Position numbers and translations under genes: made by a program
The notes under the pieces: model-generated
What the model was told of the DNA's origin: nothing
The model's database searches: none
What the model saw: only the letters and a program-made list of their open reading frames with translations
IMG/VR virus record: IMGVR_UViG_3300013004_000026
Location: 96,001-160,000 of that record
Length of the DNA: 64,000 nt
Direction: 5' to 3' (one strand)
Origin: a virus
Shown: positions 5,101 to 55,809 of the stretch, in pieces
Position numbering within the stretch: the first letter of the stretch is position 1
Layout of the letters: every line of letters begins with the position of its first letter

Positions 5101-5432
5101 GTCTCTAAGTAATTGATTTTTCTTCGCGCCACAGCCTGGTTCCAGCCCTGTGCATGGCTGCGCCGCTCAGCGTAGGTTCCGTCGGCCATGCTGTAAATGG
5201 CACCGCCGGTACTGTTGACTATTTGGTAATTTGTGATACGCCATGCAGGATTGGGGATTTGCCGTTTCAACAATGCAATTTGCTCGTCCTTGTTGTTGCA
5301 ATCAACAACAAAATTCTCAAGGTCCTGCAAAGGCATCAACGCCACTCTAGTGCCTGGTGCGCTGGCGCAACCGCTTAGTATCAGCGCCGTCGCGATGACA
5401 CTGGCTGTACACAGGTGCTTTTTATAGTCCAT
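5079..5432 (-). CDS. lipoprotein
   Basis: Lipobox LSGC. Confidence 0.65.
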   Translation of the reverse strand: MDYKKHLCTASVIATALILSGCASAPGTRVALMPLQDLENFVVDCNNKDEQIALLKRQIPNPAWRITNYQIVNSTGGAIYSMADGTYAERRSHAQGWNQAVARRKINYLETWCQTKK

Positions 5433-5653
5433 ATTAGATTCTTTGCATTAGCAACATATCTGCGTTCGTAATCAGAGCGTTCTGGATTGTATACACCTGC
5501 AGCCAGTTGATGTTCTAACCAACGCACCTGGATGGCTGCATTGGTACAATCTGGACGCATGGTGCTTAAATCATCTCGCTCCACCAAAGGAGGTGGTACA
5601 GTGGCACAACCACTCAGTGCCACACACCCCAGTATCAACCAGCGCGGTACCAC
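5381..5653 (-). CDS. lipoprotein
   Basis: Lipobox LSGC; D-C-x-N...Q-I/V-x-x-L pattern shared with the 5079-5432 protein. Confidence 0.6.
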   Translation of the reverse strand: MVPRWLILGCVALSGCATVPPPLVERDDLSTMRPDCTNAAIQVRWLEHQLAAGVYNPERSDYERRYVANAKNLIWTIKSTCVQPVSSRRR

Positions 5654-5790
5654 AACATCACTCCGCGCAGAGCTGATTCGGCCTGCTCACGTTTCACACC
5701 AGTTTCCTGGACCACAAAACGCACTGCCCGATCAAAAGACATTTGACGACCAAAGATAGCCGTGTTAGCGGCCTGCTCAATTTGACTCAT
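5635..5790 (-). CDS. small hypothetical protein (51 aa)
   Basis: MSQIEQAANTAIFGRQMSFDRAVRFVVQETG...; SD GGAG; ATGA overlap with the upstream gene. Confidence 0.6.
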   Translation of the reverse strand: MSQIEQAANTAIFGRQMSFDRAVRFVVQETGVKREQAESALRGVMLWYRAG

Positions 5791-35753: not shown

Positions 35754-36878
35754 TTATAAGCTGAATCCTTTGAATGTATCGTTAGTGACATCTTGTTTTG
35801 TGCCACCAATCACATAAGTAGTTATCTCTGTTTCCTGGGGGGCAACTTGAACTTCTGCTCCAGCAATCCATTTTTGTGTCCACGGCAGTGGATTACTGCC
35901 AGTCTTGATATGGCACTTGAGACCCACGCTGTTCATGCGCTTGCAGGTCAGCCAATCAATATAATCGCAGAGTAGTTGCTCATTGAGACCAATCATGCTG
36001 CCATCTTTGAACAAATACTTTGCCCAGTCTTTTTCTTGAGCAGCGGCTTGCAAAAACATGTCTTCGCATTCCTGCAAAGTTTCTTCCTTGATCTTGGCAA
36101 AGTCATGATCATCCTGCGGTAGTATTTTCAACAGAGTTTGTGTTGCACCCAGATGCACATTCTCATCGCGACAGATGAGTTTGATAATCTTGGCATTGCC
36201 TTCCATCTTCTTGAGTTCTGCAAATGCCCAGGAGCAGGCAAAACTCACATAAAATCTTATGCCTTCTAAGGCGTTTACAGAATTTATTGCCAACCATAAC
36301 TTTTTCTTAAGATCATAAAGATCAATCTTGATTTCTTTACCGTTCACAGTATGAGTACCGGCTCCCAGTAGGTTGTAGTAGCTGCCGTACTCTATCACAT
36401 CATCATAGTATTTGCTGATGTCTTTGGCACAATCCATGATAGGTTGTATTTCCATGAGCTCATCAAAAATAATACTTGGGTCGCTGTAGACATTTCGTAT
36501 GATGTGAGTATAACTGCGACTATGTACTGTTTCGTTAAAGGTCCAAGTGGCAATCCAAGTTTCTAATTCTGGTAAGCTGCACAACGGTCCAAATGCTGCA
36601 CTGGGCGCACGACCTTGCACACTGTCTAGCAGAATCTGTCGTTTGAGATTGCTGGTAAAAATATGTTGTTCAAATGGAGTTAGTTCTTTGAAATCCTTGC
36701 TGTCATGTCCCACATCAATTTCTTCAGGGCGCCAAAAAAAGCCAAGTTGTTTATCTGTTAGTTTATCAAATTGTCTATACTTGAGAGTATCAAATCGTTG
36801 GATGGTAACACCACCGTTGGGATCTAAAAAAGCCAAACTGTCCACATGGGACTTCTTATTAATATTAAAAATTGACAC
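35754..36878 (-). CDS. nrdB: ribonucleotide reductase class Ia beta subunit
   Basis: FFWRPEE, LLDSVQ, ETVHSRSY, LEGIRFYVSF, DENVH, VAPQE. Confidence 0.97.
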   Translation of the reverse strand: MSIFNINKKSHVDSLAFLDPNGGVTIQRFDTLKYRQFDKLTDKQLGFFWRPEEIDVGHDSKDFKELTPFEQHIFTSNLKRQILLDSVQGRAPSAAFGPLCSLPELETWIATWTFNETVHSRSYTHIIRNVYSDPSIIFDELMEIQPIMDCAKDISKYYDDVIEYGSYYNLLGAGTHTVNGKEIKIDLYDLKKKLWLAINSVNALEGIRFYVSFACSWAFAELKKMEGNAKIIKLICRDENVHLGATQTLLKILPQDDHDFAKIKEETLQECEDMFLQAAAQEKDWAKYLFKDGSMIGLNEQLLCDYIDWLTCKRMNSVGLKCHIKTGSNPLPWTQKWIAGAEVQVAPQETEITTYVIGGTKQDVTNDTFKGFSL

Positions 36879-36888
36879 GGTGTTTTCC

Positions 36889-39189: not shown

Positions 39190-39203
39190 TGATTCCTCTG
39201 ACT

Positions 39204-39650
39204 TCAATAACGATCCAGCCCTAAATCAGCACTGGAATATTTGATAATTTGTACTAAGCTCTCTGGTATTGATTTTTTATTTACAACCTCGCTGGATTCT
39301 AAATTAAGAACATATTTCCCATTGTTAATCCAAACTAAATTAAACTGGTGAAGTGTTCCGTGCTGACGATACACACGCACTTCTAAATCACAATTTTTAT
39401 GATCACTTAGATGTAGAGTGTACACTATTGCTAGAGCTTTTGCAAGATCGCAGTAGTAATTCTCGGCAATTAAAGTCCACGGATCTGGCCAAGTATCTGG
39501 CCTGTCGTACTCAAGGTAAAAAGGAGTAAAGGGTGCTCTACTCCAGAATCTGGCCACATGTTCCAGCGCAGATTCAATGGACATTGAATCTATTTCTTTA
39601 CGAAATCTTTTCCAATAGTCCAACCGTTCAGCTGGAGATAGTTTCCACAT
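39204..39650 (-). CDS. hypothetical protein (possibly transglutaminase-like fold)
   Basis: WPDPW.LI..NYYCDLAKA...YVLN pattern. Confidence 0.55.
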   Translation of the reverse strand: MWKLSPAERLDYWKRFRKEIDSMSIESALEHVARFWSRAPFTPFYLEYDRPDTWPDPWTLIAENYYCDLAKALAIVYTLHLSDHKNCDLEVRVYRQHGTLHQFNLVWINNGKYVLNLESSEVVNKKSIPESLVQIIKYSSADLGLDRY

Positions 39651-39664
39651 GAACTTACTTATGT

Positions 39665-41281
39665 TTAGACAAACTTGGTTATTGAATATGTCAAGGTGCC
39701 AGAGCCGCTGCCGTCACTGGTGTATGCCAAGTTTGCCTGCGTGGCACTGATACTCATGACCTTGAAAGTTACTCCAGTAGGGCCCGGATACGAAAAATTA
39801 CCCGCATCAGGATACTCAACATATTCGTCCATGTATTGCACATTGGTTCCTGCATGCACAATGTCAATTTTGCCATGTCTATATGCACTGGCGCTGGGTC
39901 TCTGCAACCAATAGTGTACTGTGGCAGCACCATTGGTTCCGTCAAATACAATACCTGTGTTTGCATTAGTTTGACTTGCACTAATGGTCAGCACTCGTCC
40001 AGGTGCTTGATTGACCTTGCCGAGACTTATACCGGTGTTGGCATCAAAACTCATGCTCACACTAGCTGCTGGTGTGCTTACCCGTGGTTGTACTGCATGA
40101 TCTTTTTCGTCGCGAACAAAAACATCGCCTATGCTGTGATTGCCACTGCCACCAAATGTCACCACTGGGTATGCGGCAGATCCTATGCCTGCATAGGCTG
40201 TGCCAACATCATCATAAAAGTTCATGCTGCTGATTACAGAAGTGTAAATGTTTGTATTAGCTGCTTGAACATTAATGGCTGATCTAGCAATGTCGTCAAA
40301 GGTACTGTTTATTACTTTGATATTTTTTGTTTCAACCACCGTGGCTGTGGTGTCAATTACCACTGCCTGACTTAACTGTTTGAAACCGCAGCCAATGAAT
40401 CTAATGTCTGTTCCATTAAGCACTGCACCTTGAGTGCAGTTGTTGAAATCACATTCAACAAAACTTACATTTCGTATAAAGCCAGAATTGCTCAATGGTC
40501 TTGCATAAACAGCATTCTGTAATGCAACATTGGCACTGTTGGGGCTGCTTTGACTGCCTTTGAACACCACTCGTATAAATTCAACTCGCTCAGTGGTATC
40601 TAGTCTTACAATATCTTGATTGACAAGATGTTCAAGAGTCATGTTTTCAATGTAAATATCTCGGGCCACTGTTGCACTACCAGTGCCGTAGTTTGCATCA
40701 ATTTTGTTTTCGCTGTCTTTAAGTTGAACCAATGGATAAAGATTTGAACTCTGTCTAATTATGGTTCTTCCTTTGCCCTCGCCTTGCAAGATAGCAAAGC
40801 TGGGCAATTTTAGGCTGGCGGTAATTAGATACACACCAGCCGGGAAATGAATAATTCTACGCAGTCTTGGTGTAGTCAGTGAGAAGTTACCAAAATACAC
40901 TTCGTCAATGGCTCGTTGTATAGCTGCGGTATCATTGGTGTTACCGTCGCCCACAACACCGAAGTCGCGTACATTTACATAATCATCAACTTTTTGCTGT
41001 AGCGTACGAGTGATCGGTTGATCTGTGGTAGGACCAGTTCGACTGGTGTAACCAGACTGACTGCCTCTAAATGTATAGGCATCACTGATGTTCAACAGAT
41101 CTGAATACTGTGTGAGAATTTCTGTCACACCAGTCTCTGGTGCACCTTCAGCAATGGTTCCATTGCCAATGTACAGCTGGCGTGTGTCAACAGCCCATCC
41201 TAACTCTGCGCTGGCCAGCTGTGGTAAATCCTGTTGCAGCCCTTTACGGTGCTGAATTCTTGATATCTGAATAACGGCCAT
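39665..41281 (-). CDS. tail spike/fibre protein with pectate-lyase-like beta-helix
   Basis: N-terminal RIQHRKG..LPQLA.AELGW..D...LYIGNG; VNVRDFGVVGDG.TNDTAAIQRAI; FPAGVYLI. Confidence 0.85.
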   Translation of the reverse strand: MAVIQISRIQHRKGLQQDLPQLASAELGWAVDTRQLYIGNGTIAEGAPETGVTEILTQYSDLLNISDAYTFRGSQSGYTSRTGPTTDQPITRTLQQKVDDYVNVRDFGVVGDGNTNDTAAIQRAIDEVYFGNFSLTTPRLRRIIHFPAGVYLITASLKLPSFAILQGEGKGRTIIRQSSNLYPLVQLKDSENKIDANYGTGSATVARDIYIENMTLEHLVNQDIVRLDTTERVEFIRVVFKGSQSSPNSANVALQNAVYARPLSNSGFIRNVSFVECDFNNCTQGAVLNGTDIRFIGCGFKQLSQAVVIDTTATVVETKNIKVINSTFDDIARSAINVQAANTNIYTSVISSMNFYDDVGTAYAGIGSAAYPVVTFGGSGNHSIGDVFVRDEKDHAVQPRVSTPAASVSMSFDANTGISLGKVNQAPGRVLTISASQTNANTGIVFDGTNGAATVHYWLQRPSASAYRHGKIDIVHAGTNVQYMDEYVEYPDAGNFSYPGPTGVTFKVMSISATQANLAYTSDGSGSGTLTYSITKFV

Positions 41282-41307: not shown

Positions 41308-42018
41308 TTAGCTCATCAGGTAGTATAGCTCAACTCGCTTGAGCCACTCTTCCTTCCAGTGTGCAAATTCAGTGCTTTCGATGGTAAATTCCTGGTATTC
41401 TGGGGTACTGTAGGTGCCATCTTCTAGCAGTTTTGGCTGTGCGCACATCAATATCACGCCATCCTGTATGTTGGTACCGTGTGTTTCATTGTGTGCTTCT
41501 GCATAGGCTGCAAGCTGTAAAAAATAATCTCCAACCCATTCGCGTTTTTTAGGCCGGTTGGTCTGCTTGAAATCCATAATTGCAGGACGACCCTTCCACA
41601 CACCCACACAGTCTGTGGTACCCGCATATAACCCACTATAATAAACAGGCACTTCTGACCCCCAGAATTCATCCACATGACACAGGCCTTTGAGGATAAC
41701 TTCTGCTGCCATGAACCAACTGGGGTGTGCATAAGGATTGGTAGGCAAGGGTTTCATGTCATCCTGCAGGATAAATGATTCCAAATAAGCATGCATACGA
41801 GTACCGCGATTGGCTGCTTCTGTGGTAATGGCTTGAGCACGTTCCACCCCCACACGGTTACGCCATTCCTGAAGTTTCTGCTTGGCTTCCTCTGGCTTGG
41901 TGCGATCTAGAATAGTAGTAACACTGGGTACTTTGCTGCCATCAGGCAAGCAATAGTGTCTCTTGCCATCCACAGTTGTTCTGTTGATTGGCGTGTAGTC
42001 ATATCGTTGAATTATCAT
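41308..42018 (-). CDS. PD-(D/E)xK exonuclease
   Basis: PSVTTIL, RGTRMH, E...AGTTD...IMDFKQ, QLAAY. Confidence 0.9.
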   Translation of the reverse strand: MIIQRYDYTPINRTTVDGKRHYCLPDGSKVPSVTTILDRTKPEEAKQKLQEWRNRVGVERAQAITTEAANRGTRMHAYLESFILQDDMKPLPTNPYAHPSWFMAAEVILKGLCHVDEFWGSEVPVYYSGLYAGTTDCVGVWKGRPAIMDFKQTNRPKKREWVGDYFLQLAAYAEAHNETHGTNIQDGVILMCAQPKLLEDGTYSTPEYQEFTIESTEFAHWKEEWLKRVELYYLMS

Positions 42019-42345
42019 TTATATTCGAAAACTTTCCCCGCATCCGCATTCGCCTTTGGAATTTGGATTGCGAAACTCGAACCCTTCATTGAGTCCTTGT
42101 CTTACATAGTCTACTTCTAGTCCACTGATGTACACATGGTCTTGACCATTTACCCATACCGTGGCACCATTGCTTTCATACTGGAACCAGTCACGAGTAA
42201 CAGGCGCAGTGTCCATGTATTCTAACACATAAGCCAGGCCCGAGCAACCAGTGGTTTTTACACCAATGCGTATGCCCACTCCATGTCCTCGGCGTTCAAT
42301 ATGTGCAATAACTTTTTTAGCAGCTTGTTCAGTCAGTGTTATCAT
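42019..42345 (-). CDS. iscA: Fe-S cluster assembly A-type carrier IscA
   Basis: GCSGLAY, GFEFRNPN, CGCGESF. Confidence 0.95.
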   Translation of the reverse strand: MITLTEQAAKKVIAHIERRGHGVGIRIGVKTTGCSGLAYVLEYMDTAPVTRDWFQYESNGATVWVNGQDHVYISGLEVDYVRQGLNEGFEFRNPNSKGECGCGESFRI

Positions 42346-42806
42346 GTGTGCCAGATCTCATCAAAACCTTCTTGTTCAGTGGGTTCTTCCCAGTCGCCCA
42401 GCATTTTTTCCAGCACTGAGTCAGGAATCTCTTTACCTGGTCTGCTGTCAAGGCGGCGTCGTAATTCCATTGGCTCCGGGGTAGGAAAAACTACAGCCAC
42501 CATCTTGTAGTCAGGCAGCATGCGAAACTTTCTAGCACGGCTGGCTGTGGTAGTAGAAGTTTGATCCCAGATGATATCTTTTTCTTGTTCTCTAGCATCA
42601 ATCACCTGAGCAGCCATGATGTTCACAGCCTTGGGCATGTACTCGTCAAATATTTCAGTATAAGTTTTTCCCTGGCGGTCAGCTTCAATTTGCACCCAAA
42701 CATCTGTTGACGCATAGGTACAATCTTTTGCCCAGTCTTGATTAGACACCCAGGTGCTTTTGCCCGAGCCAGGTACGCCTACTAGGATATATGCTGTTGG
42801 CATCAA
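42342..42806 (-). CDS. P-loop kinase (AAA_33; polynucleotide-kinase-like)
   Basis: GVPGSGKSTW, STD, IIWDQT, R...R. Confidence 0.85.
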   Translation of the reverse strand: MMPTAYILVGVPGSGKSTWVSNQDWAKDCTYASTDVWVQIEADRQGKTYTEIFDEYMPKAVNIMAAQVIDAREQEKDIIWDQTSTTTASRARKFRMLPDYKMVAVVFPTPEPMELRRRLDSRPGKEIPDSVLEKMLGDWEEPTEQEGFDEIWHT

Positions 42807-43174
42807 TGTTTGCTCTTGTAGTCAATTATGGCTGCTTGAATCGCGTCTTCAGCAAGAATTGAGCAATGTATTTTAACTGGGGGGAGTGCAAGATGTTCGG
42901 CGATCTCAGAATTCTTAATAGATCCTGCTTCTGCCAGCGTCTTACCTTTGACCCACTCCGTAACGAGTGATGAACTTGCAATGGCTGAGCCGCAGCCATA
43001 AGTCTTGAATTTTGCGTCCGTGATAATGCCATCTTGCACCTTGATTTGTAGTTTCATTACATCACCACATGCAGGTGCTCCCACCATGCCTGTGCCTACT
43101 GTGTCGTCAATTTCTAATTTTCCTACGTTACGGGGGTTTTCGTAGTGATCTATAACTTTGTCTGAATATGCCAT
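42803..43174 (-). CDS. iscU: Fe-S scaffold IscU
   Basis: MAYSDKVIDHYENPRNVG, APACGD, GCGSAIAS, LPPVKIHC. Confidence 0.97.
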   Translation of the reverse strand: MAYSDKVIDHYENPRNVGKLEIDDTVGTGMVGAPACGDVMKLQIKVQDGIITDAKFKTYGCGSAIASSSLVTEWVKGKTLAEAGSIKNSEIAEHLALPPVKIHCSILAEDAIQAAIIDYKSKH

Positions 43175-43175
43175 T

Positions 43176-43637
43176 TTATTGTGTGTTAGATGTATCGTAG
43201 GTCTTGGCAAAGATATCTGCTTTGACAGCACCATAATCACCAGGTCCATGTTTGACAATGTAGTCATTGCCTGTGGTGTAGTTTAGATTGCCCCAGCTGG
43301 TATGTAGTACACCGTCATGGTCAGCAAGTTTTGCTACCTTGAGTATTTTCTTAGGTGTGCATTCACCGTCACCGAGATCGTCTTTGTATTCACGGAACTT
43401 TTCTGGTGTGATAGGATACTGTTCGCCTTTGGGGCCTGTCATGATATAATGACCCGTATCGTAGCTAACAGGACCTTCTAGTGTTTCCACTGTGCCAGGG
43501 GCTTGTGCTATTTGGTATTTTTCAACAGCAGGCTTTTTGAATGTTTCAAATGATCCTTTTTCAAACCAAGCATCATTGATTGCTGTTTCGGCTTCAACTA
43601 TCATATTACTGTACTTTCGAAAAAATATTGAGTCCAT
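43176..43637 (-). CDS. PGDYG-family protein
   Basis: TLEG, GPKGEQYP, PGDYG.V..DIF..TY. Confidence 0.8.
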   Translation of the reverse strand: MDSIFFRKYSNMIVEAETAINDAWFEKGSFETFKKPAVEKYQIAQAPGTVETLEGPVSYDTGHYIMTGPKGEQYPITPEKFREYKDDLGDGECTPKKILKVAKLADHDGVLHTSWGNLNYTTGNDYIVKHGPGDYGAVKADIFAKTYDTSNTQ

Positions 43638-43689: not shown

Positions 43690-44070
43690 TTAACTTCTAT
43701 TAGAAGCAGCTCGTTTGGCCATTGCGTCAACAACTTTGGTAGGATCTTTGGCGTTGCCACTGTTCCCGGTGTCTTGCTCGCTCTCTGGGCTGGTACCGGG
43801 CTCATCTCCAAAGGGCTTGAAGCTGATGTTTTTTTCGTCTAGATTGGTAATGAGATTTTTGAATGCTGGCTTGCTCATCATGTTTTGCAGCAATTGGTAA
43901 TTTAACACACGGCTGCCTGCCATGTTGTTTACCATGTTAATAAACCCCGCGGTGCTGTGCGGGGTTGTTAACTTTTTGTTATGGTCTCGGTTACGCAAAA
44001 ACTCCAGCGTGGTCAATATCTGCGCAGTGAGTTGATCCGAGTCCTCACTCAAGAACTCGTGTATGCGCAT
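43690..44070 (-). CDS. hypothetical protein, probable head-internal protein
   Basis: N-terminus MRIHEFLSE. Confidence 0.65.
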   Translation of the reverse strand: MRIHEFLSEDSDQLTAQILTTLEFLRNRDHNKKLTTPHSTAGFINMVNNMAGSRVLNYQLLQNMMSKPAFKNLITNLDEKNISFKPFGDEPGTSPESEQDTGNSGNAKDPTKVVDAMAKRAASNRS

Positions 44071-44072
44071 GA

Positions 44073-44765
44073 TTATCTCTTGCCGCGACCAAGTGTTTCG
44101 CCGCCGCCGGCAGCAGCATCGGTTGCAGCAAATTCATCTGGTGCTTCAATATCGCTGGCCATGTCTGGTGCAGGAGGAGCTTCCATGCCAGGCATACCTG
44201 GAGTTCCCATGTCACCACCTGGCATGCCCATTGGGGCAGCTACCTGTTCACCAGCCAGTGTTCTAGCAGCACCGTCAGATGCTTCGCGAGCACCTTGCAG
44301 TGCTGTTACCAACTCTTGCAGGATAGGAGTCACTGTGCCTTTGAAAGCATCAGCTTGTGGTTGACCAATTTGGTCACGAATGGTGTCCAGCAGTGCAGGT
44401 AACTGTTCGTTTTGCATTTTGCTGATGTCTTCTAGCATGTCCTGGAAGCTGTCTACGATGTCCTTGGCAGCCAGAATTGCACCGCTTTTGGCAATTTCGC
44501 TTTCTGTGAGTGGACGATTTTCGTCAATCCAACGATTGAGTCCTTCGCGCACCATGAGCATTTCCATGTACTTTGGATTCTTTTCTGCTGTGTGAACGCC
44601 AAAATTATACTTTAGACGGTTTAGGTTTTCTGTCAAACTGACGCTGAGCTCTCGAGCTTTGCGTAAATTCAGCTTGCTGTAATCAATGCGAAAACCAAAG
44701 CGATTTTCGTTGATTCTGTTAATCTTAAGAGATGAAGGTTTAGTTGCGAGTTCTTGCAGTTTCAT
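44073..44765 (-). CDS. hypothetical protein, probable prohead core/virion protein
   Basis: MKLQEL start, LTES site, TAAATA upstream. Confidence 0.6.
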   Translation of the reverse strand: MKLQELATKPSSLKINRINENRFGFRIDYSKLNLRKARELSVSLTENLNRLKYNFGVHTAEKNPKYMEMLMVREGLNRWIDENRPLTESEIAKSGAILAAKDIVDSFQDMLEDISKMQNEQLPALLDTIRDQIGQPQADAFKGTVTPILQELVTALQGAREASDGAARTLAGEQVAAPMGMPGGDMGTPGMPGMEAPPAPDMASDIEAPDEFAATDAAAGGGETLGRGKR

Positions 44766-46841: not shown

Positions 46842-47408
46842 TTATAAATCTAGTTCGTTTGGTAACAGATCCACAATGTCCAATAACAGCGCATGACGCT
46901 GTAATTCTCTGCGTAGATTACTCGCTGCCATACGCTTTTCAAAACGATTGCTACGAGTCCAGTCCATTACCACTCTTCGTATGCCGGTAAGTGTGGAATC
47001 ACTTATGCTCAAAGCATATTCTAGATTTAGAAAAAACTGCCGATCCAGGCTGGGTGCAGAAATGCCCATGCGCAGTCTTTGCATATAACTATGTATCTGT
47101 AGCGACGGGGCATGCACATCAAAGTTTACCTCTATACGCTCTGCATAGTCATTTTGATTGCTCAACACAGTTACCAAATTTGCCACATCTGTGGCTCCAT
47201 TGCGCATCTTGTCAAAGTCATTGAACTGTAAGGTTCTGTAAGCATACATTTGACTGCGTTGGTCATTAAACTGCCTTATGAACTCCAAGGACAACATGGC
47301 CACATACAGCACTCGGCCCAGTTCGTGGGCTTTTTGTCCACGCAAGCCTGCTAGTCCGCGAAACATGCGGCTTTCTTTTAGTTCGTCTAAGAATTCAAAA
47401 CTAGACAT
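46842..47408 (-). CDS. hypothetical protein
   Basis: MSSFEFLDELKES start. Confidence 0.6.
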   Translation of the reverse strand: MSSFEFLDELKESRMFRGLAGLRGQKAHELGRVLYVAMLSLEFIRQFNDQRSQMYAYRTLQFNDFDKMRNGATDVANLVTVLSNQNDYAERIEVNFDVHAPSLQIHSYMQRLRMGISAPSLDRQFFLNLEYALSISDSTLTGIRRVVMDWTRSNRFEKRMAASNLRRELQRHALLLDIVDLLPNELDL

Positions 47409-48546
47409 TTTTTGCAAAGTTAGCTCTACTGAAACCCAGTCGATCAATCAACTTGAACTTGTCAGCACCACCGCCTACCACATAGCCCTCGTGCCCTATA
47501 TCGTCGCCAGTGTATGCTTGTACATCGCCACTGGCTTGTTGTGCATCAATTTGTTTTTTAACTGACAACTTGAGGTTGTACAAGGCTACCCATATGGCAA
47601 ACATGCCTGCTAGGCCTTGTGCTCCTTCTTTGTAGAGATATCCAGGTTGCTCTTCTGTGCCAAGCAATTTGGTACTGGCTGCTCCGCTGAGATTTTGGCC
47701 AAGGTATGCGTAGAATCCTTCCAGCATGTTATCAAAGTTGCCTGCGGAGATCTTGCTGGTAATATACTTGCTGGCCAGTCCAATGATACCTTTGGCTTTG
47801 AGTCCTGCAAGACTGCTCATGAAGTTGGTCACAGCATCTGAGTATTGATCAATGATTTTTTGCACAGGTGCTGTGTCAGCTGCGGCTATTTTGACCTTGG
47901 GCACAGGCATTTCACCTGTGACAAACCAAATTGGATTACCGTCAGCTGGTAATCCGCCTAGCCCTTGCAACGGCTGGTCAGCTTCACCCACGCCAGGTAT
48001 AAAACTGTGTACAGCAATACCTGCGATGCTGCTTTTGATTTTCTGTCCCACTGGACTATCTGCTTTCACACGATATGTGACTGTGTTGGGACGAAAAACA
48101 TACATACCCTGTTGTGGTTGTAGCCGACCTGCATACAGCAAATCTCCAAAGTAAAAGCCACGGAAATTGCCTGGTATGATAGATTCCAGTGCTGGCCACA
48201 GGGTGTCAATCTTGGCATGCAGGTCTCCGCGGTCAGCACCGCGATTCATGTCATATTGTTTGAATGCTTCTGGACTGGTAACACGGCCGCTGCCGTCCTT
48301 TTTTTCAAACATGTGCTTGTCTGTGACCATGAGCTCGCCGTCCACATTGCGTCCAAACACCAGGGCTGGAAATCCGTCCCACTTGATAGTGGTAAGTTCT
48401 TTGCCTGTGCTCATACTAGACAGAGCATTCATACTGCGGCTGGCACCTTCTATGCCATCAGTCCACACAGCATCTTCAGGATGTACAATGCCTTCCTTGA
48501 TAAACACCGGTTCTGACGGTTTGTTAAATATTTCTGTAATCTTCAT
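47401..48546 (-). CDS. ATP-dependent ligase-fold (RNA-ligase-like) protein
   Basis: Motif I IKWDG, III YFGDLL, IV HEGYVV, V FKLID. Confidence 0.7.
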   Translation of the reverse strand: MKITEIFNKPSEPVFIKEGIVHPEDAVWTDGIEGASRSMNALSSMSTGKELTTIKWDGFPALVFGRNVDGELMVTDKHMFEKKDGSGRVTSPEAFKQYDMNRGADRGDLHAKIDTLWPALESIIPGNFRGFYFGDLLYAGRLQPQQGMYVFRPNTVTYRVKADSPVGQKIKSSIAGIAVHSFIPGVGEADQPLQGLGGLPADGNPIWFVTGEMPVPKVKIAAADTAPVQKIIDQYSDAVTNFMSSLAGLKAKGIIGLASKYITSKISAGNFDNMLEGFYAYLGQNLSGAASTKLLGTEEQPGYLYKEGAQGLAGMFAIWVALYNLKLSVKKQIDAQQASGDVQAYTGDDIGHEGYVVGGGADKFKLIDRLGFSRANFAKNV

Positions 48547-49670
48547 TTGAAGTAGCCTTGAACTGTTTCCAGTCCTTGTAAAATTTTTTGTTTGTCGCTT
48601 TCAGCACGAGCAATAGCAGCAGGTGTTTGAGCTTTGTCACGCTTTTTGCCCTGCACATCAACCATGGCTTTGTCTTGATAACGCTGCCAAAACTTATTTA
48701 AGAAATCATCAGCACCGGAAAAGTTCTTTAGATCTCCTTGCCCAAACATGTTGTTGGCCTCGGCACTGGCTGCAAATGCCTTGACACCGCGCACGAGAGT
48801 TTCTATGTTGACTTTTTCAATATTGACACCGCCATAGGTTTTCAATGCTGGCACAATTTTTGGTTTATCAATGCCCTGTTGCTTTGCTAGATAGCGAAAA
48901 GTATCTAGTATAAATGATGTAGGTTCAGTGGTTACTGTGACTGTTTCAGTGTCTTTTTGCTTGCTAAACGGCACACGCTCGCCGTCAATTACTTTTAGTT
49001 GCACGCCTGCATGTTGAATACTCATGTCCAACAGCTCGCCCAACACACTCCACATGTTGCCAGTAAGCAGTCCTTTCACACCGTGTTGTGGTGTTACTCT
49101 AGTGGCGCCCCAGGTGCTTAACTTTGGTTCGTGCCACATGAAATCAACTTGTACAAAAGCATCCTTGCCAATGGCTATAATAGGGTGTCCTGGTTTACTT
49201 TCTGTGGACAACACATACGCAGGATTGGTTTCTTTTACAAACTCGTCGGCCAAGCGATTCCAAAAGCTAGTAAACTGTCCATAAGTTAATCCTTCCACCG
49301 GAGGCGCAATCATCTGTAGATCCACATCACCGTAGACTTTTTCTGGATCATTTTTGGCATCTTGAGCATGGTAAGCACTGCTACCAGTGGGGCGACCCAT
49401 CTGCACAGGTCCTTGACCTTGTGGTTGCAACCAGGTGTTGAAATCTGTTACAAACTGTTGAACCACTGCCAACGAGGATTTTACCACATTGGGTGTTATC
49501 ACAGTGCCTTGAGTAGCTGTGGTATCCCACCCACCTTCTTGCACACTTTCTCCACCGTCGCCACCATCGCTGCTGTCGCCGTATGAGCCAAAGCCAGGAA
49601 ACCAATAACCACTGTAGGCAAATTTAGATTTCTTGTGGCGTTTTTCGCTTACAAAGTCTTTAGATTTCAT
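48543..49670 (-). CDS. Pol-beta superfamily nucleotidyltransferase
   Basis: TGSSAY...YGDVDL and FVQVDFM. Confidence 0.7.
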   Translation of the reverse strand: MKSKDFVSEKRHKKSKFAYSGYWFPGFGSYGDSSDGGDGGESVQEGGWDTTATQGTVITPNVVKSSLAVVQQFVTDFNTWLQPQGQGPVQMGRPTGSSAYHAQDAKNDPEKVYGDVDLQMIAPPVEGLTYGQFTSFWNRLADEFVKETNPAYVLSTESKPGHPIIAIGKDAFVQVDFMWHEPKLSTWGATRVTPQHGVKGLLTGNMWSVLGELLDMSIQHAGVQLKVIDGERVPFSKQKDTETVTVTTEPTSFILDTFRYLAKQQGIDKPKIVPALKTYGGVNIEKVNIETLVRGVKAFAASAEANNMFGQGDLKNFSGADDFLNKFWQRYQDKAMVDVQGKKRDKAQTPAAIARAESDKQKILQGLETVQGYFK

Positions 49671-50440
49671 TATCTCACCAGCAGAGTTTGCATGGCGCGA
49701 AACCAACTGGGAGATCCTTCTTCTAGTTTTTTAGGCAGCATGATGAGACCTTTAACCTCGTCTTCACGAGCTTGTGCCAATTTCTCATCTTGCATGGGAT
49801 CATTTTCCAGTGCTCGCAGAATACTTTTCACACTGTTGAGATCATCGCCAGTGGCTCGAGGATTGAGTAGAATCTTGGCCACGCTGTCTCTGTCTCTTGC
49901 TACCACAGTGTTATCGTCACGACGAAGTAGTTTAGCACCAAAGGCATCAAATTTCAAACCCAGTGCTTTGCCAATGCTGTTCATTAGAATAAAGATACTT
50001 TGTCCTTTGAATTCAGGATCATTGTAACTGCCTCGAGGCCCATGCTGGTGATAAGGTGCAACTAAGGCAGCATCATTGATAACCATCACATCAACTTGAG
50101 CCATAGCGTCCTTGTAGGGCACGCCTATGTGTACATTGTTGCCCTTGGTCACACTGTCAAAACCTTTGGCACGGAAAAAGTTTTCCAGTGCTTTTTTACC
50201 TGCTTTCACAGGTTCTTTTTCGTCTTGAGTTTGAAACAGTGCAACAACATCTTCTGCTTCAATCATGACATCAATGTCGCCTGATTCTACTTTGTAGCCT
50301 GCACTGCCAATGTCTATTTGCATGCGTTTCACTAACGCAGGCGGCAATGCTGATCGTACTTCGTCAACCACTTTTGCAACATCTCTTTTGGCTACAGGAA
50401 TGCTGTTGGGAATGGCGTTTCCGCCTTCGTGTAATTTCAT
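49670..50440 (-). CDS. Pol-beta superfamily nucleotidyltransferase
   Basis: IGSAGYKVESGDIDV and AQVDVM. Confidence 0.75.
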   Translation of the reverse strand: MKLHEGGNAIPNSIPVAKRDVAKVVDEVRSALPPALVKRMQIDIGSAGYKVESGDIDVMIEAEDVVALFQTQDEKEPVKAGKKALENFFRAKGFDSVTKGNNVHIGVPYKDAMAQVDVMVINDAALVAPYHQHGPRGSYNDPEFKGQSIFILMNSIGKALGLKFDAFGAKLLRRDDNTVVARDRDSVAKILLNPRATGDDLNSVKSILRALENDPMQDEKLAQAREDEVKGLIMLPKKLEEGSPSWFRAMQTLLVR

Positions 50441-53259
50441 AGCTTTACTGCATCCAAAACAAAGTTTTCAAACTCTCGGGCCAACTTGGTGTCAGCTGAT
50501 TCACGAATGTATTTGCCTCCATACGCCCGAGTTTGCTCGTTGGCCTGTGCCACACGCTGATCAGCCTGTGTAGAGGCTCCAGGATTGTTGGATACCAATT
50601 CGCTTGGCCCTAGCTGTTTTTTTGGTACAGTATCTTGTGCGCCGCCTTTGCCTTTTGATCTTTTGCCTTTGGTGCGCTTGATGATTTCAGCTGGCTTTTC
50701 AGTGGTCTGGCCGGCAGAGGTGCCTCTAAATTGCTTTAGTTTTTCACGATAGACCGGTGGCGCAGCGCGAGACAACACACTCATTGCTGTGTCAATAATG
50801 GTTATAAGGTCATCGGCATACGCCATGCTAGTCATACGAGCCAACTGTGGTAGGATCATATTGGTTGCACTAGCAATTTGACCATCACCTTGTGAACCAC
50901 CTGTTGTAGTGCCACCCGGTGTACTGCCTTGCATTCCGCCTGAGGTTGTAGTGGTTGTTGTGCTACCACCTGCGCCTGCACCACCTGCTCCAGTGTCAGT
51001 ACTACTCACGCCTGCAGACATGTCTGGTGCACCATTGGCAAAGAATCTCACATTGCCCCGATCATCGCGATTGTATGGATCAATGGCGTCTGCTCCACCA
51101 GCTGCTCCACCAGCTGCTGCACCTGCTGCACCAGCTGCTGTTGCAGGAGCATCTAACTTAGGTGCTGGAAAATTAAGTTGTGTAAACAGTTGCTTGATAA
51201 TCTCTGGTGGTACTTTTCTACCAACCAAGAACTTTGCCACTTCGTCGCTGTCTGTTGGTGAGTCTGCATCCTGCCAATGGCGTAATAAGCCATTTAGAGT
51301 TACCTTGGTAGTAGCTTCGCGCCATGAGTCTCCGGCCCAGTTGCCAAAACGCTTTAGGCCGCTTTCGATACCACGCATGAGCTTGCCGCCAAGTGGACCT
51401 TTGCCCTTGGTCTTGAACTTGCCTTCGGGATCAGCTGCCAAGTAAGGCATGGTGTTGCCTGCTGGAGCAGTTCCGGTGGCCAGCCCGCCTACATTGCCGC
51501 CTGTGAGTCCTGCCAATGGTCCAGCTGTGTTTGAAACATTGGTTGCGGATGTTCTGGCATTCTTTGCCATGGCTGCAGGATCATTGGCATTAGCAGGACG
51601 GCTGCGCACTGTACCGCCTTGTTGATCCTTTTGTAGATCAGCTGATGTTCTTTCTCCTCTACCAGCCGCAAAAGAATCTACAGTACCTGGATCAGGTATG
51701 CCAGGTTCTGGCGTAGAGGCAGCGATGTCTGCTGCCGCGGCTGGGTTTGATTGTGCAAACTGTTGTGCTGTCATTTTTCCTTTAACAGGCGCAGGAGCAG
51801 CTCTACCAGCTTTTTCAGCAGCAGCTTTGGCGGCAGCATTTTGTGTAGCAGCCTGCGCGGCGCCAGCACGACCTGCGGCTTGCCCCATGGCATGACTGCG
51901 CTCACGGCCAATGTTGTAACGGCGTGCTTCGTCCATGGCAAATTCATGCAATCGTTCTAGATTTGCAAACACTGTGCGAATGCCTGCTTCGTTCAATTGA
52001 ACACTGCGTTTGTTGTCACGACCTAAACTTTCATTTAGTGCCCATTTACGAACTGTAGCCTGACGATCAACCAACATGCCAACAGGTGCAGTGATAATAT
52101 CAAAGCCTTCTAGTATGTTACGACCTTTTTTGATCTTGACAGATTCTGTACGCACCATTCTGTTAGCAAAAGGGTCCTGTGCAGACGGCGTTGGAGTTTG
52201 AGCAGACGGAGCTGATGAGGCTGCTGTCTTGGCCTTGGCTGCGGCTGCATCAGCTGCTATTCTTTTAGCGGCCATGCCTTGGTCTGACCCCAACTGTCCT
52301 GCATCCATTTTGTTCTGGATGTTTTGAGCTGTCATGGCATTGTCGCCACTGTAAGGCCCTTTGTAGGCCGCAGCATCAATGTTCTTTGGCAATACAATTT
52401 GATCGCCGGGACTGAGAATATTAGGATTACCGCTAGGCCCAAACTTGCCAGGATTGAGCTTGGCCATAACATCTGGATCAACTTTGTACTTGGCACTAAT
52501 GTCGCTGAGTGTGTCACCCTGTTTCACTGTGATAGTTTGTGTTTCGCCGCCAGGTGGTACCACATTGTCTGGACCAGGTGGTACAACATTGTCAGGACCA
52601 GGTGGATTGGGCTTGAATGGGTTGTTAATATCGGGAATGTCAGTGTTGGCAATAACGTCGCCTGCTGCTGTTGCGGCCTTGACACCAAGAGCTGCGCCCA
52701 CTGGCCGTGTGGCACGACCTGCTGCTGTGCTGAACTGTTCACCTTGCATCAAGCCATCAATCATTTTGATTGCACCCAGGGCCAGCACAGGTGCTGCGCC
52801 GCTGGTAAGTAGACCAGTCAGCACCCCAGCTACACCCCAGAAAAACTTGCTGGTGGTAGGATAACGCTGAGCAGTTTGTTTGTATGTGTCAAGAGCTCGC
52901 AGTACCCTGGAGCCTTCTGGGCTCTTGCCCATGCCCATGCTGGCTGCTTTTTTGAGTTCATCAAACTTGGCATCAACACCTTGAACAACTGTGGTATCTT
53001 GCAGGGCTTTTCCCAGGCCTTTGATCTTGGCTCCTAGAGCTCCTGCTAGGTCGCCGGCCTTGCCCAGTATGTTACGATTTTTGTTACCGGCTGTCATTGC
53101 CTCTTCTGCACCCTTGAATAAATCGTGGATTTCGCTGCGATTGAGGGCCTTGCCTTCTGTGAGTTTATTAAGCTCACGCACCAATGCTACTGCTTCTTGG
53201 TATAGTGGGTGAGTCTGTATATCTAAATCGTTATTGTTTGTTAGGTGTTGAAGTTTCAC
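50437..53259 (-). CDS. large LysM-containing low-complexity protein, probable injected head protein
   Basis: TVKQGDTLSDIS...LNP...PNILSPGDQIVLP LysM; hydrophobic hairpin; Ala/Gly/Pro-rich. Confidence 0.75.
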   Translation of the reverse strand: MKLQHLTNNNDLDIQTHPLYQEAVALVRELNKLTEGKALNRSEIHDLFKGAEEAMTAGNKNRNILGKAGDLAGALGAKIKGLGKALQDTTVVQGVDAKFDELKKAASMGMGKSPEGSRVLRALDTYKQTAQRYPTTSKFFWGVAGVLTGLLTSGAAPVLALGAIKMIDGLMQGEQFSTAAGRATRPVGAALGVKAATAAGDVIANTDIPDINNPFKPNPPGPDNVVPPGPDNVVPPGGETQTITVKQGDTLSDISAKYKVDPDVMAKLNPGKFGPSGNPNILSPGDQIVLPKNIDAAAYKGPYSGDNAMTAQNIQNKMDAGQLGSDQGMAAKRIAADAAAAKAKTAASSAPSAQTPTPSAQDPFANRMVRTESVKIKKGRNILEGFDIITAPVGMLVDRQATVRKWALNESLGRDNKRSVQLNEAGIRTVFANLERLHEFAMDEARRYNIGRERSHAMGQAAGRAGAAQAATQNAAAKAAAEKAGRAAPAPVKGKMTAQQFAQSNPAAAADIAASTPEPGIPDPGTVDSFAAGRGERTSADLQKDQQGGTVRSRPANANDPAAMAKNARTSATNVSNTAGPLAGLTGGNVGGLATGTAPAGNTMPYLAADPEGKFKTKGKGPLGGKLMRGIESGLKRFGNWAGDSWREATTKVTLNGLLRHWQDADSPTDSDEVAKFLVGRKVPPEIIKQLFTQLNFPAPKLDAPATAAGAAGAAAGGAAGGADAIDPYNRDDRGNVRFFANGAPDMSAGVSSTDTGAGGAGAGGSTTTTTTSGGMQGSTPGGTTTGGSQGDGQIASATNMILPQLARMTSMAYADDLITIIDTAMSVLSRAAPPVYREKLKQFRGTSAGQTTEKPAEIIKRTKGKRSKGKGGAQDTVPKKQLGPSELVSNNPGASTQADQRVAQANEQTRAYGGKYIRESADTKLAREFENFVLDAVKL
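52550..52605. repeat. 24-bp coding tandem repeat (PPGPDNVV x2)
   Basis: ccaggtggtac(c/a)acattgtc(t/a)gga repeated. Confidence 0.75.
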
Positions 53260-53497
53260 TGCGCATTCTCCGTATTCCCCTAATGAACTTGTTAGGGTCC
53301 TGCGCTCGAATGCTGTTCAACAGCCTGCGTTCTAGCTCAGAAGCCACTTCCTCATTATAGGATTCTCTAATGGTATTAATAAGGTTAATGGCGCCTTGTA
53401 TAACATGGTCAGCACGACTTTCCAGCACATTTTCTTTGTCCTTTTCGACAAAGTAGCTGTCTAGTTCTTCCAGTATACTACGGGTTTTTTTAAGCAC
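53231..53497 (-). CDS. hypothetical protein
   Basis: KKTRSILEEL...ELERRLLNSIR; TAAATA upstream. Confidence 0.7.
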   Translation of the reverse strand: MLKKTRSILEELDSYFVEKDKENVLESRADHVIQGAINLINTIRESYNEEVASELERRLLNSIRAQDPNKFIRGIRRMRSETSTPNKQ

Positions 53498-53548
53498 CCC
53501 AAGACTCCATTTCTCTATTATTTATTGCAAGTGCGTTTAGAGTTTGGC

Positions 53549-54946
53549 TTATCTTGCCTGGGCTTTGATGCCAGCCAGCATGCTTTTTAACTTGTTTGAA
53601 CCCAGTTCCGCTTGTGCTGAAGCAGTCGATTCAGCAGTGTCAGGCTCCACAGTGCTTTTGGTTTTGATTTGATTCATGATATTCAGTGCCTGTGGACGAT
53701 GTGAATCCCCTTGTTGATCTTCGGGCAAGTCTGTGATACGCAAACTTTCCATATTGTATTCTAGATCAACCTTTTGGCCAACCCCACTGCTGCTACGAGT
53801 TTTCATTAACTGTATTTGATAGCGTCCGCGCTCTTTCATGGCTCTTGAAGTAAAGATACCAAACACATTATCTGCTGTGTTAATCTTACTGATACCACCA
53901 GAGATATGACTGTGGTCAAATTCAATTTCTTCCACAGCACTGCGATTCAACTGACTTGCAGTGATCAACAGTATGTTGAACTCTTTGGCCAAATTGCGTA
54001 GTTCTTCACTCACATACTTGTCTTTTACAAACAGATCGTTTGGTGATACCTTGGCACTCACTGGCATGAGCAAGTCCAGATAGTCTACCATTATGTAGTC
54101 TGTTTTCATTCCGGTTTGCACTTGCAATTCTTTTAGATATGCACGAATGTCATTGATGTTGCTTTGTGCTGGCATGTATTTGATGCGCATTGCTCCGGCC
54201 TTTTTACCTACCAGCTTGATCTTCATTTCTACTGTGTCAATATCTTTGAAGATTTCACGAGTGCTCACATTGGCCAACATGCTATCTATGCGCATGGCAC
54301 ACAGGCCTTCACTGAGTTCTAGTGTTAGATACACACCATTGAGTCCTGCTAGTGACCAGTTACACGCAATGTTTTGCATGAACAAGGATTTACCTGATCC
54401 AGACCCGCCTGCAAAGATGTTGAGTTCGCCTCGGTTCATGCCGCCAAACAGTTTCTTGTCCATGGCAGGCCAGCCAGTACTGATTTGTCCGTTGCCTTCT
54501 CTGATGGCCATTAGTCGTCCACGAGGATCAGCAAAATAGTCAGTGCCCATGTCTTTGGTCAAACTAATCTGCACAGCATCTTTGATCAGTTTTTCCACAG
54601 GATTGAACTCGCCTTTTTCAATCAAATCTGCTGCTTTGAGGATGGCTCGTTCAAGTTCTTTTTGTTTGGTAAAACTTTCAAACTCTTCCATAAACCAATC
54701 AAAATGCCCGTCGCCTAGATCTGGAATGCTTCGTAGTTCAACCCCAGTGACTGCTCGCACCTGTTCTAATGTGGGTAGAGTTTTGTGTTTGTCTGAGTGT
54801 TCTTTGACAAACTTGGCCACACTTCTGAGACTGCGGTCAAAGTTTTCATCATTGTAGATGTTTTGCACACGCACAAAACTCTGTGCGTCATGCAGCATCA
54901 TTTCAAGAAAGAGTTTTTGTATTTCTGTATTATATTCTTTAATCAT
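53549..54946 (-). CDS. DnaB-like replicative helicase (T4 gp41-like)
   Basis: ISTGW, GGSGSGKS, LELSE, VDYLDL, TASQLNR, KTRSS. Confidence 0.93.
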   Translation of the reverse strand: MIKEYNTEIQKLFLEMMLHDAQSFVRVQNIYNDENFDRSLRSVAKFVKEHSDKHKTLPTLEQVRAVTGVELRSIPDLGDGHFDWFMEEFESFTKQKELERAILKAADLIEKGEFNPVEKLIKDAVQISLTKDMGTDYFADPRGRLMAIREGNGQISTGWPAMDKKLFGGMNRGELNIFAGGSGSGKSLFMQNIACNWSLAGLNGVYLTLELSEGLCAMRIDSMLANVSTREIFKDIDTVEMKIKLVGKKAGAMRIKYMPAQSNINDIRAYLKELQVQTGMKTDYIMVDYLDLLMPVSAKVSPNDLFVKDKYVSEELRNLAKEFNILLITASQLNRSAVEEIEFDHSHISGGISKINTADNVFGIFTSRAMKERGRYQIQLMKTRSSSGVGQKVDLEYNMESLRITDLPEDQQGDSHRPQALNIMNQIKTKSTVEPDTAESTASAQAELGSNKLKSMLAGIKAQAR

Positions 54947-55809
54947 AATTGCCTACAAGTATAACTGCAAACTGGCTGCGGATCAAATTGCATTTGCTCA
55001 TCATACTGTCCCAACTGAGTCAACACTTGACTCAGCGTAGTGTTACTTATATTGTATGCTGCTGAGTCAGTGTGGAACTTGCTGCGATAATAGAATCTAT
55101 GATCAGCTGCATAACAACATGGTGCGTATTGTCCACTTGCACTGATATAGTGTTGATTGCCCACAGAACACTTTGGTTGTATCAATCCTGCACCTCTATG
55201 CCATATTAAAGTTTGTGACTGCGGACGCAGAGGATCTGTTTCTGCAAAACGATTGCTGGGATCTAGTTTTACATCGTGCATGCCTAGATCTTTGGCCATT
55301 TGTTGTATGGCAGGAATTTCGTGTTCATTGAAACTAAAAGGCACCACTTTCCACACAGCTCTAGCGTCAGAATTTGCAACTGACTGTATGCCTTGTGCAA
55401 TGGTGCTCCAATCACTGTTCACACGATATTTTACACTACTGTCTGGCAAACCGTCGATACTAAATTCCACAATGTCAGCTGGTGTCAGCATGCCCACCCA
55501 GGACTCCCACCAGGCACGATCTCTGTAGCTGCCATTGGTAGTGAGTACAATACGGCCTTGATTACTTTTTATAAACATTATCAAGTCACGCAGGTGTTCG
55601 TAGTAGATAGGATCTCCTGTGTTGCCGCAGATGCCCCAGGTAAGATTGGCAATGTCCACATCCAAGAAACTTTTCAGTGCTGATAGATCAAGATCTTGAT
55701 TGTGCCAGTTCTTTCTACCAAACTGCTGAATAAATTGAGTGCGTTCACAGGCAGAGCATGCTAACACACATCTGTTGGTGGGTTCTAAATGAAAGCCGGA
55801 GATTTTCAT
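54943..55809 (-). CDS. radical SAM protein with Twitch/SPASM-like tail
   Basis: CVLACSAC (CxxxCxxC), GDP, TNGS, FSIDG, PCC. Confidence 0.9.
   Translation of the reverse strand: MKISGFHLEPTNRCVLACSACERTQFIQQFGRKNWHNQDLDLSALKSFLDVDIANLTWGICGNTGDPIYYEHLRDLIMFIKSNQGRIVLTTNGSYRDRAWWESWVGMLTPADIVEFSIDGLPDSSVKYRVNSDWSTIAQGIQSVANSDARAVWKVVPFSFNEHEIPAIQQMAKDLGMHDVKLDPSNRFAETDPLRPQSQTLIWHRGAGLIQPKCSVGNQHYISASGQYAPCCYAADHRFYYRSKFHTDSAAYNISNTTLSQVLTQLGQYDEQMQFDPQPVCSYTCRQL

Follow-up and report, generated by a model that had tools for sequence, protein, structure and literature searches.

A stretch of 64,000 nucleotides (the window; bases 96001-160000 of the 168-kb IMG/VR viral contig IMGVR_UViG_3300013004_000026) contains a group of three adjacent open reading frames that exactly fill positions 47401-50440 and are all encoded on the minus strand. 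Positions refer to the window unless they are marked as contig positions, which count from the start of the contig. The three genes, in the order of their transcription, are the following.

49670-50440, minus strand: P3, 256 amino acids, predicted nucleotidyltransferase resembling family X DNA polymerases (PolX).
48543-49670, minus strand: P2, 375 amino acids, probable enlarged and divergent paralogue of P3.
47401-48546, minus strand: P1, 381 amino acids, match to the Pfam family DUF6267.

The genes overlap in TAATG (P3/P2) and ATGA (P2/P1), the pattern of translational coupling. The start of P2 was placed at the ATG at position 49670, as in most homologues; a start at the TTG at position 49706 was considered and rejected, being unsupported by most homologues. 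An earlier note, made from the sequence alone, had described three adjacent coupled genes with the motifs KWDG, FGD, EGYVV and FKL of an RNA-ligase-like enzyme and the motifs GS-x-GDxD and QVD of two Pol-beta nucleotidyltransferases. All of these motifs are present and conserved, and the assignments to the ligase fold and to the Pol-beta superfamily proved right (AlphaFold models with Foldseek and VIA-align searches for P1 and P3, hhalign for P2).

P3 has no sequence match in Pfam, PHROG or the PDB. When 1.8 billion cluster representatives were searched with a profile, 377 clusters (50% identity) of related proteins were recovered. The protein carries the motifs G45-S46, D55-x-D57 and Q115-V-D117, and the only columns that are invariant among 53 sequences (down to 25% identity) are G45, D55, D57 and D117, which constitute the signature of the Pol-beta superfamily. 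The Pfam models of the family X palm and thumb gave only sub-threshold matches, to DNA_pol_B_palm, in 4 of these 53 members (best E = 0.016). The AlphaFold2 model of P3 (predicted local distance difference test score, pLDDT, 93.1; residues 1-5 below 50) consists of a palm, a thumb and a C-terminal helical tail. A Foldseek search of the PDB with this model returned Pol lambda, Pol mu and Tth PolX (probability 1.0, E = 1e-5, ~200-215 columns), and in VIA-align eight family X polymerases rank first. The closest of them is Pol X of African swine fever virus (ASFV; 5hr9, Z 10.7, root mean square deviation 3.0 Å, 156 of 176 residues aligned), followed by the palm and thumb of Pol beta (Z 9.8), TdT (9.6), Tth PolX (9.5) and Pol lambda (9.4); together with Leishmania pol beta, the last three span Z 9.1-9.6. 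The family X matches cover both palm and thumb (P3 residues ~13-205), whereas terminal uridylyltransferases, CD-NTases, MenT and the CCA-adding enzyme reach Z ≤8.1 with only the palm aligned (CCA-adding enzyme, Z 5.7). A search of the BFVD viral structures with P3 retrieved members of its own family, a protein of Atu_ph07 and PolX proteins of giant viruses. Judged from the predicted structure, P3 is a minimal family-X-polymerase-like enzyme with a thumb, and not a generic, CCA-adding or AMPylating nucleotidyltransferase.

About 590 homologues of P2 were identified in metagenomes and none in cultured phages. The invariant residues are E45, G46, G47, G96, S97, D115, D117 and D176. An hhalign comparison of the P3 family with the P2 family gave a probability of 85.5% (E = 5.7e-6) over 133 columns, among them those of the GS, DxD and QVD motifs; this similarity was significant only with the deeper P3 alignment, the comparison of shallow alignments being insignificant (probability 1%). 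P2 is accordingly described here as a probable distant, enlarged paralogue of P3, with a fold assigned by homology. Some of its relatives carry N-terminal GNAT or NTP_transf_2 domains. For P2 and P3, the membership in the Pol-beta superfamily claimed by the earlier note was upheld, while the generic, CCA-adding or AMPylating type that it had considered gave way to a PolX-like type with a thumb.

Neither P2 nor P3 had a tblastn match among 50,697 cultured-phage records, and megablast of the whole locus found none. P1, P2 and P3 used singly gave no match in sequence searches of the PDB, and the family profiles gave none or a spurious match to the TRIM29 coiled coil (for the P3 profile see also below). 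Feature searches of the Atlas returned only the families' own clusters, unnamed or labelled DUF6267, and literature searches on phage PolX and on family X polymerases of jumbo phages found nothing relevant.

P1 matches the Pfam family DUF6267 (E = 4e-33), on which a literature search found no papers. Homologues at 22-28% identity are present in T4-like cyanophages, in the Methylophilales phage Melnitz and in the Stenotrophomonas phage DLP_6, and others occur in hundreds of metagenomic phages. Conservation was assessed among 37 homologues (44-87% identity). Motifs I, III, IIIa, IV and V are present in order, with invariant residues in motif I (K55, D57 and G58 of K55-W-D57-G58), motif III (G134-D135), motif IIIa (F151, P153 and N154 of F151-x-P153-N154), motif IV (E353, G354 and V356 of E353-G354-Y-V356) and motif V (K365 of K363-F-K365), as well as at R369. 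The spacing between motifs IIIa and IV is unusually long (~200 amino acids) because of a helical insert of ~115 amino acids (residues 222-337), and a conserved HPED motif lies upstream of motif I. The AlphaFold2 model (pLDDT 89.6, predicted template modelling score 0.84; first 20 residues 49-57) ends ~15 residues past motif V and has no OB domain. Foldseek returned weak rows, mostly ligases. In a VIA-align search of 48,161 chains the top 31 (Z 8.0-4.6) consisted entirely of RNA ligases, DNA ligases and capping enzymes, led by the RNA ligases NgrRnl (Z 8.0), T4 Rnl2 (6.9) and REL1 (6.8); T4 Rnl2, REL1 and the DNA ligases IV, III, T4 and T7 fall within Z 6.9-5.7, capping enzymes within Z 4.4-4.8, and the adenylation domain of LigA at Z 4.6. 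The case for a ligase fold rests on this uniform list of neighbours together with the invariant motif residues and not on any single Z-score, and on this model-based evidence P1 is assigned to the covalent nucleotidyltransferase fold with high confidence.

P1 shares the residues of motifs I, III, IIIa, IV and V with its best structural neighbours, NgrRnl (Rnl5) and T4 Rnl2, but it differs from them in the insert and the HPED motif, has none of their accessory domains and shows no match to them at the sequence level. The RNA_ligase model (PF09414) found no match at E ≤1 in P1 or anywhere else on the contig, and the DNA_ligase_A_M model (PF01068) did not match P1 but a separate gene:

Contig 65413-66729, 30 kb before the window: canonical ATP-dependent DNA ligase (PF01068, E = 7.7e-19).

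The presence of this canonical DNA ligase indicates that P1 is an additional, specialised enzyme of the ligase superfamily. By its modelled structure, P1 resembles RNA ligases at the superfamily level only, and the insert, the HPED motif, the missing OB domain and the lack of a match to the ligase models set it apart from every known family. In the Prochlorococcus phage P-HM1 (L002, 5164-7061), the DUF6267 gene is followed by two annotated cytidyltransferase genes and lies near gp41 and mazG, outside the structural module. The genes upstream of DUF6267 in P-HM1 and Melnitz were considered as homologues of P2 or P3 and rejected (hhalign probability <1%), and the deep profile of the P3 family finds nothing in these two genomes.

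In each of P1, P2 and P3 the conserved part of the protein begins just after the sequence [LIVM]-x-E↓G (the arrow marks the junction), so that a putative propeptide can be delimited in every gene.

50426-50440, minus strand (P3 codons 1-5): putative propeptide, MKLHE↓GG, with the junction L-x-E↓GG.
49536-49670, minus strand (P2 codons 1-45): variable putative propeptide, MKSKDFVSE...SVQE↓GGWDTT.
48493-48546, minus strand (P1 codons 1-18): putative propeptide, MKITE...FIKE↓G.

Glutamate occupies position -1 in 30 out of 30 P2 homologues and 28 out of 29 P3 homologues, and L, I, V or M occupies position -3 in 29 out of 30 and 28 out of 29, respectively. A site of the same type lies 2-6 residues before HPED in 33 out of 37 P1 homologues, and the site recurs at every internal polyprotein domain junction that was inspected. 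In P3 homologues a nearly invariant G-G-N follows it. The segment that precedes the site varies and can be a leader of 5-45 residues, a Gly/acidic linker, or an entire GNAT, nucleotidyltransferase or HxGH domain. The leaders are disordered in the models of P1 and P3.

The leaders MKSKDFVSE, MKITEIF, MSSFEFLDE, MRIHEFLSE and others resemble the capsid-targeting sequence of T4, which comprises residues 1-10 of IPIII; residues 8 and 10 determine its processing (PMC9026906). The internal proteins IPI-III and Alt of T4 carry this sequence, which is removed by the gp21 prohead protease (PMC9026906, PMC3012670). The likeness extends to the leader pattern (M-K-x-x-E-F/I-I/L-x-E), to the cut after Glu in L/I-x-E and to the combination of varied cargo with a constant tag. 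The differences are that the cargo consists of nucleotidyl-transfer enzymes, and of polyproteins in the relatives, that the P3 leader is only 5 residues long and that the present system is a predicted one. The leader motif was found at 15 out of 221 predicted N-termini compared with 11 out of 999 internal methionines (p = 6e-6), and the N-terminal occurrences are clustered in two gene blocks. A leader of the type M-K/R-x-x-E/D-F/I/L-(I/L/V)-x-E stands on unrelated proteins within these two blocks, including the following.

43690-44070: leader-bearing gene.
44073-44762: leader-bearing gene.
46842-47408: leader-bearing gene of the 188-amino-acid protein described below.
1760-2473: leader-bearing nucleotidyltransferase, borderline match to NTP_transf_2 (E = 4.8e-4).
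<1-959: leader-bearing NT5C/HAD protein (E = 2.2e-5).
Contig 87927-95979: leader-bearing genes.

The AAA_33 P-loop kinase encoded at 42342-42806 (E = 2.6e-17) is without the leader.

The third nucleotidyltransferase, the HAD phosphatase and the kinase had been named in the earlier note, and the M-x-x-x-E/D leader that it had reported for all of these proteins except the kinase was found as described. By its sequence and position, [LIVM]-x-E↓G would be a cut site of the type used by the T4 gp21 head protease, and packaging of P1, P2 and P3 in the head is plausible.

The three genes are part of a longer transcription unit that begins with a promoter-like motif and extends beyond P1.

53519-53525, minus strand: ATAAATA, late-promoter-like motif at the head of the unit, 28 nucleotides before the start of the small open reading frame.
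53231-53497, minus strand: small open reading frame, 88 amino acids, first gene of the unit.
50437-53259, minus strand: LysM protein, 940 amino acids, low-complexity and Ala/Gly/Pro-rich, with one LysM domain.
46842-47408, minus strand: helical protein of 188 amino acids, leader MSSFEFLDE, coupled to P1.

The LysM gene is coupled to P3 through ATGA, and the start of the 188-amino-acid gene overlaps the stop of P1 (ATGTCTAG). The LysM protein (Pfam LysM, E = 3e-8; PHROG transglycosylase/endolysin) may be an ejected, cell-wall-binding protein. The 188-amino-acid protein matched no Pfam family. A search for ATAAATA showed that 18 out of the 28 copies on the contig lie ≤80 nucleotides upstream of a start on the same strand, where ~1.5 would be expected (binomial 6e-17), at distances of 7-66 and mostly 23-30 nucleotides. 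Within the window the motif occurs at positions 53525, 46834, 29275, 23188, 15404, 10493 and 2498, and the next copy downstream of the one that heads the unit (~46834) lies beyond the operon. Further copies precede giant genes that presumably encode structural proteins. No enrichment was seen for the canonical T4 late promoter TATAAATA (one copy in the window compared with 1.7 expected). On this sequence evidence ATAAATA is taken as a shortened T4-late-promoter-like motif, with enrichment for the short form only.

Related contigs share the order DnaB helicase, LysM protein, P3, variable genes, DUF6267 and a gene of 190-193 amino acids, which identifies the 188-amino-acid protein as a conserved companion of DUF6267; in one homologue (P0342) this companion is fused to the C-terminus of DUF6267. 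An equivalent of the small open reading frame (84-87 amino acids) is found at the same place. A P3 domain and DUF6267 are joined in one polypeptide in three proteins (P0367, P0372 and P0375) and in a 245-member Atlas cluster, and their order, P3 before DUF6267, is conserved. DUF6267 in relatives is also fused to, or then followed by, HxGH cytidylyltransferase/NMNAT-like domains, and in long polyproteins there are NUDIX, NT5C and amidoligase domains as well. Compared with these arrangements, the P3-DUF6267 module of the window is split into three coupled genes and contains a second, enlarged PolX-like paralogue (P2). The HxGH gene is unlinked to the module here, whereas in relatives its domain lies beside DUF6267 and P3 or is fused to them:

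Contig 4489-5658, outside the window: HxGH cytidylyltransferase/NMNAT-like gene (PF01467, E = 9e-9), N-terminus MFIAQLFE, ATAAATA 30 nucleotides upstream.

A structure prediction for a complex of P1 and P3 scored 0.00; it was made without controls, permits no verdict and was counted neither way.

The contig is rated 47% complete by CheckV, implying a genome of roughly 360 kb. A 333-kb relative (G001; 92% complete), with a P3 of 66% identity, has genes for a T4 gp21-type prohead protease (Peptidase_S77, E = 2.5e-27) and a T4 gp23-type major capsid protein (Gp23, E = 2e-98), which identifies the source of the window as an uncultured T4-related jumbo phage. The corresponding module of this relative is organised as follows.

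G001, L032, 7998-11585: P3 starting with M-GG without a leader, DUF6267 and a 567-amino-acid HxGH protein; no P2.

The DUF6267 protein of G001 has the leader MKIREIITE...LNE↓G. Elsewhere in the same genome (L088, 19-594 and 1471-3796) a 191-amino-acid protein with the leader MRINEIINE is encoded two genes 3' of the gp23-type capsid gene, with one open reading frame between them, and L-L-E sites are present near the N-termini of the capsid protein and of an adjacent coiled-coil (scaffold-like) protein.

The genes around the operon in the window (35754-39207, 39665-41281, 41308-42018, 42803-43267 and 53549-55809) include the large and small subunits of a class I ribonucleotide reductase, a pectate-lyase-like protein with an Mtd_N domain (fibre-like), a weak match to a PD-(D/E)XK nuclease, a NifU-like protein, a DnaB-type helicase and a radical SAM/SPASM protein. 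A further repair gene lies at a distance:

7253-8293, minus strand: UV-damage endonuclease UvdE (Pfam, E = 1.4e-27), without a leader.

The UvdE gene shows an investment of the phage in DNA excision repair.

The reading that is favoured here, with a rough probability of 0.45, is that the three genes, which belong to one late operon, encode a fill-and-seal set for nucleic-acid ends that is probably delivered from the phage head. P3 and P2, as minimal family-X-type enzymes, would add nucleotides at a 3'-OH, either filling gaps or tailing ends, and P1, as a ligase nucleotidylated on its lysine, would seal the resulting nick. The precursors of the three proteins would be loaded into the prohead by means of the leader and trimmed there at [LIVM]-x-E↓G, and the trimmed enzymes would be ejected together with the genome and could repair the incoming DNA ahead of phage gene expression. 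The three proteins would cooperate in this reaction, and DNA is slightly favoured over RNA as the presumed substrate. Loading into the prohead is considered probable because the leader, which resembles a capsid-targeting sequence, ends in a site of the gp21 type. The earlier note had proposed that the enzymes are packaged and injected; for the packaging there is now circumstantial evidence (the leaders, the L/I-x-E↓G junctions, the late-type motif and the protease of G001), while delivery from the virion is putative.

A kit that fills and seals is favoured because a PolX beside, or fused to, a ligase is the arrangement of the nearest characterised precedents, two giant-virus sets for the repair of DNA. 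ASFV packages a base-excision repair set of Pol X, a ligase and an AP endonuclease in the virion core, so that repair is ready before replication (PMC12172490). Like the window, ASFV pairs a minimal PolX of palm and thumb (O174L) with a virus-encoded ligase (NP419L). In contrast, the present virus is tailed, has a bacterial host and two polymerase paralogues and would use a propeptide as its route of packaging; its ligase is a DUF6267 protein, which carries a helical insert and lacks an OB or DNA-binding domain, instead of a canonical DNA ligase, and its operon includes no AP endonuclease, the UvdE gene lying elsewhere. The PolX-ligase fusion of Phaeocystis globosa virus (PgV) fills gaps and seals nicks in vitro (PMC5537341), and P0375 and P0367 are fused in the same order of PolX and ligase. 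PgVPolX itself has deoxyribose phosphate (dRP)/AP lyase activity and a LigA-type ligase domain, whereas in the window the genes are split, a lyase domain is missing and the ligase fold is nearer to ATP-dependent RNA and DNA ligases.

Several observations weigh against the favoured reading. P3 starts with M-GG and lacks a leader in G001 and seven other homologues, so that the leader is not universal, and the way in which the domain begins could in part account for the E↓GG junction. Neither a head protease nor a capsid gene was found on the window's own contig, which is less than half complete by its CheckV rating, and the operon lies next to genes of replication (DnaB helicase), a neighbourhood that DUF6267 also has in cyanophages. 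The Z-scores of P1 (≤8) are middling by the caveat of VIA-align itself, its nearest neighbours are the nick-sealing RNA ligases NgrRnl, T4 Rnl2 and REL1 with DNA ligases within ~1.5 Z, and it contains neither an OB nor any other known DNA-binding domain. P3 (256 amino acids, with matches that begin at the palm) lacks the 8-kDa dRP-lyase and the helix-hairpin-helix (fingers) subdomains; ASFV Pol X also lacks both, and P3 is thereby excluded only from the full-length type. Finally, at the sequence level the P3 profile finds a single relative in the PDB, the uridylyltransferase Tailor (E = 0.004, N-terminal 80 residues).

The first of these points also bear on the possibility that P1, P2 and P3 are unpackaged, cytoplasmic proteins of late or replicative repair, with the hydrophobic-x-E-G sequence being the conserved first strand of their domains. 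The leaderless P3 homologues, the proximity of the DnaB helicase and ribonucleotide reductase genes, the position of the cyanophage DUF6267 genes in the replication module without a clear leader, and the missing protease and capsid genes all agree with it. A first strand would not be expected to be common to three unrelated folds (P1, P2/P3 and others) and to every inter-domain junction examined, or to be preceded by disordered segments of variable length; the leaders, moreover, match the T4 capsid-targeting pattern and are enriched at N-termini, and a late-type promoter motif is present. An unpackaged role is on this evidence somewhat unlikely. A set for RNA repair, in which Pol-beta-type enzymes restore the nucleotides of cleaved tRNA or other RNA and P1 reseals it to counter anticodon nucleases, is a distinctly less likely but serious rival, on account of the RNA-ligase neighbours of P1, the pairing of such enzymes in jumbo phages and the DNA ligase that the genome already has to serve its DNA. 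Its analogues would be Pnk and Rnl1 of T4 or the RlaP and RNA-ligase systems predicted in jumbo phages: in jumbo phages an RNA ligase is commonly found together with the Pol-beta nucleotidyltransferase RlaP (PMC7824862), and the logic predicted for RlaP with Rnl1 or Rnl2 (Burroughs and Aravind, as summarised in PMC7824862) is to restore nucleotides and then ligate. The neighbouring genes of the two enzyme types and the jumbo-phage genome that holds them are shared with the window, P1 lacks an OB domain as RNA ligases do, the Tailor match points in the same direction, and the genome also encodes the AAA_33 kinase and the leader-tagged HAD phosphatase. However, the RlaP model (PF10127), which found its targets in control genomes, had no match at E ≤1 in P2, P3 or the contig; P2 and P3 match no other RNA-specific nucleotidyltransferase family either, and P1 is not matched by PF09414. 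The match of P3 that includes its PolX-type thumb is to family X DNA polymerases and not to CCA-adding enzymes or terminal uridylyltransferases, and the kinase is leaderless and lies 4.6 kb away in another gene block. The healing of tRNA or rRNA ends and the modification of host proteins, both put forward in the earlier note, thus found nothing specific in their support, with no RlaP, CCA-adding or RNA_ligase match.

It is improbable that the enzymes are a cargo, packaged or merely late, that handles nucleotides or nicotinamide adenine dinucleotide by making nucleotides or transferring them to small molecules or proteins. This would account for the fusions of the P3 domain and DUF6267 with HxGH cytidylyltransferase/NMNAT-like, NUDIX, NT5C, GNAT and amidoligase domains, for the cytidyltransferase genes next to DUF6267 in P-HM1 and for the leader-bearing HxGH gene elsewhere in the genome; the near-invariant G-G-N that follows the cut site may also reflect an active site with a non-standard element. 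The thumb shared with family X and the full set of ligase motifs point instead to polynucleotide substrates, and if the fusions are polyproteins cut at L-x-E sites, they indicate co-delivery and not a single pathway. A wider form of the head-delivery reading is unlikely, though less so than repair of RNA: T4-related jumbo phages may carry a modular head cargo of PolX-like, DUF6267 ligase, HxGH/NMNAT-like, Nudix, GNAT and phosphatase domains, encoded as leader-tagged genes or polyproteins that the prohead protease would cut at L/I-x-E↓G linkers. Cleavage would expose a conserved Gly-Gly-Asn N-terminus needed for the PolX-like activity, which would keep the enzymes inactive until they are in the capsid; their targets at the moment of injection would be the genome or nucleotides of the host.

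If the fill-and-seal reading is correct, tailed phages would possess a counterpart of the packaged PolX-ligase repair sets of giant eukaryotic viruses, built from two protein families without functional annotation, and thousands of hypothetical phage proteins would gain a biochemical role: DUF6267 is carried by most marine T4-like cyanophages, and the P3 family has no Pfam model. The concept of the T4 internal proteins, one of small inhibitors, would come to include catalytic enzymes for nucleic acids as well as polyproteins. A minimal polymerase and a ligase without an OB domain could serve as compact enzymes. Mending or remodelling of the genome on entry could aid very large phage genomes in the environment, and repair at this stage could matter against host defences that nick or cut DNA.

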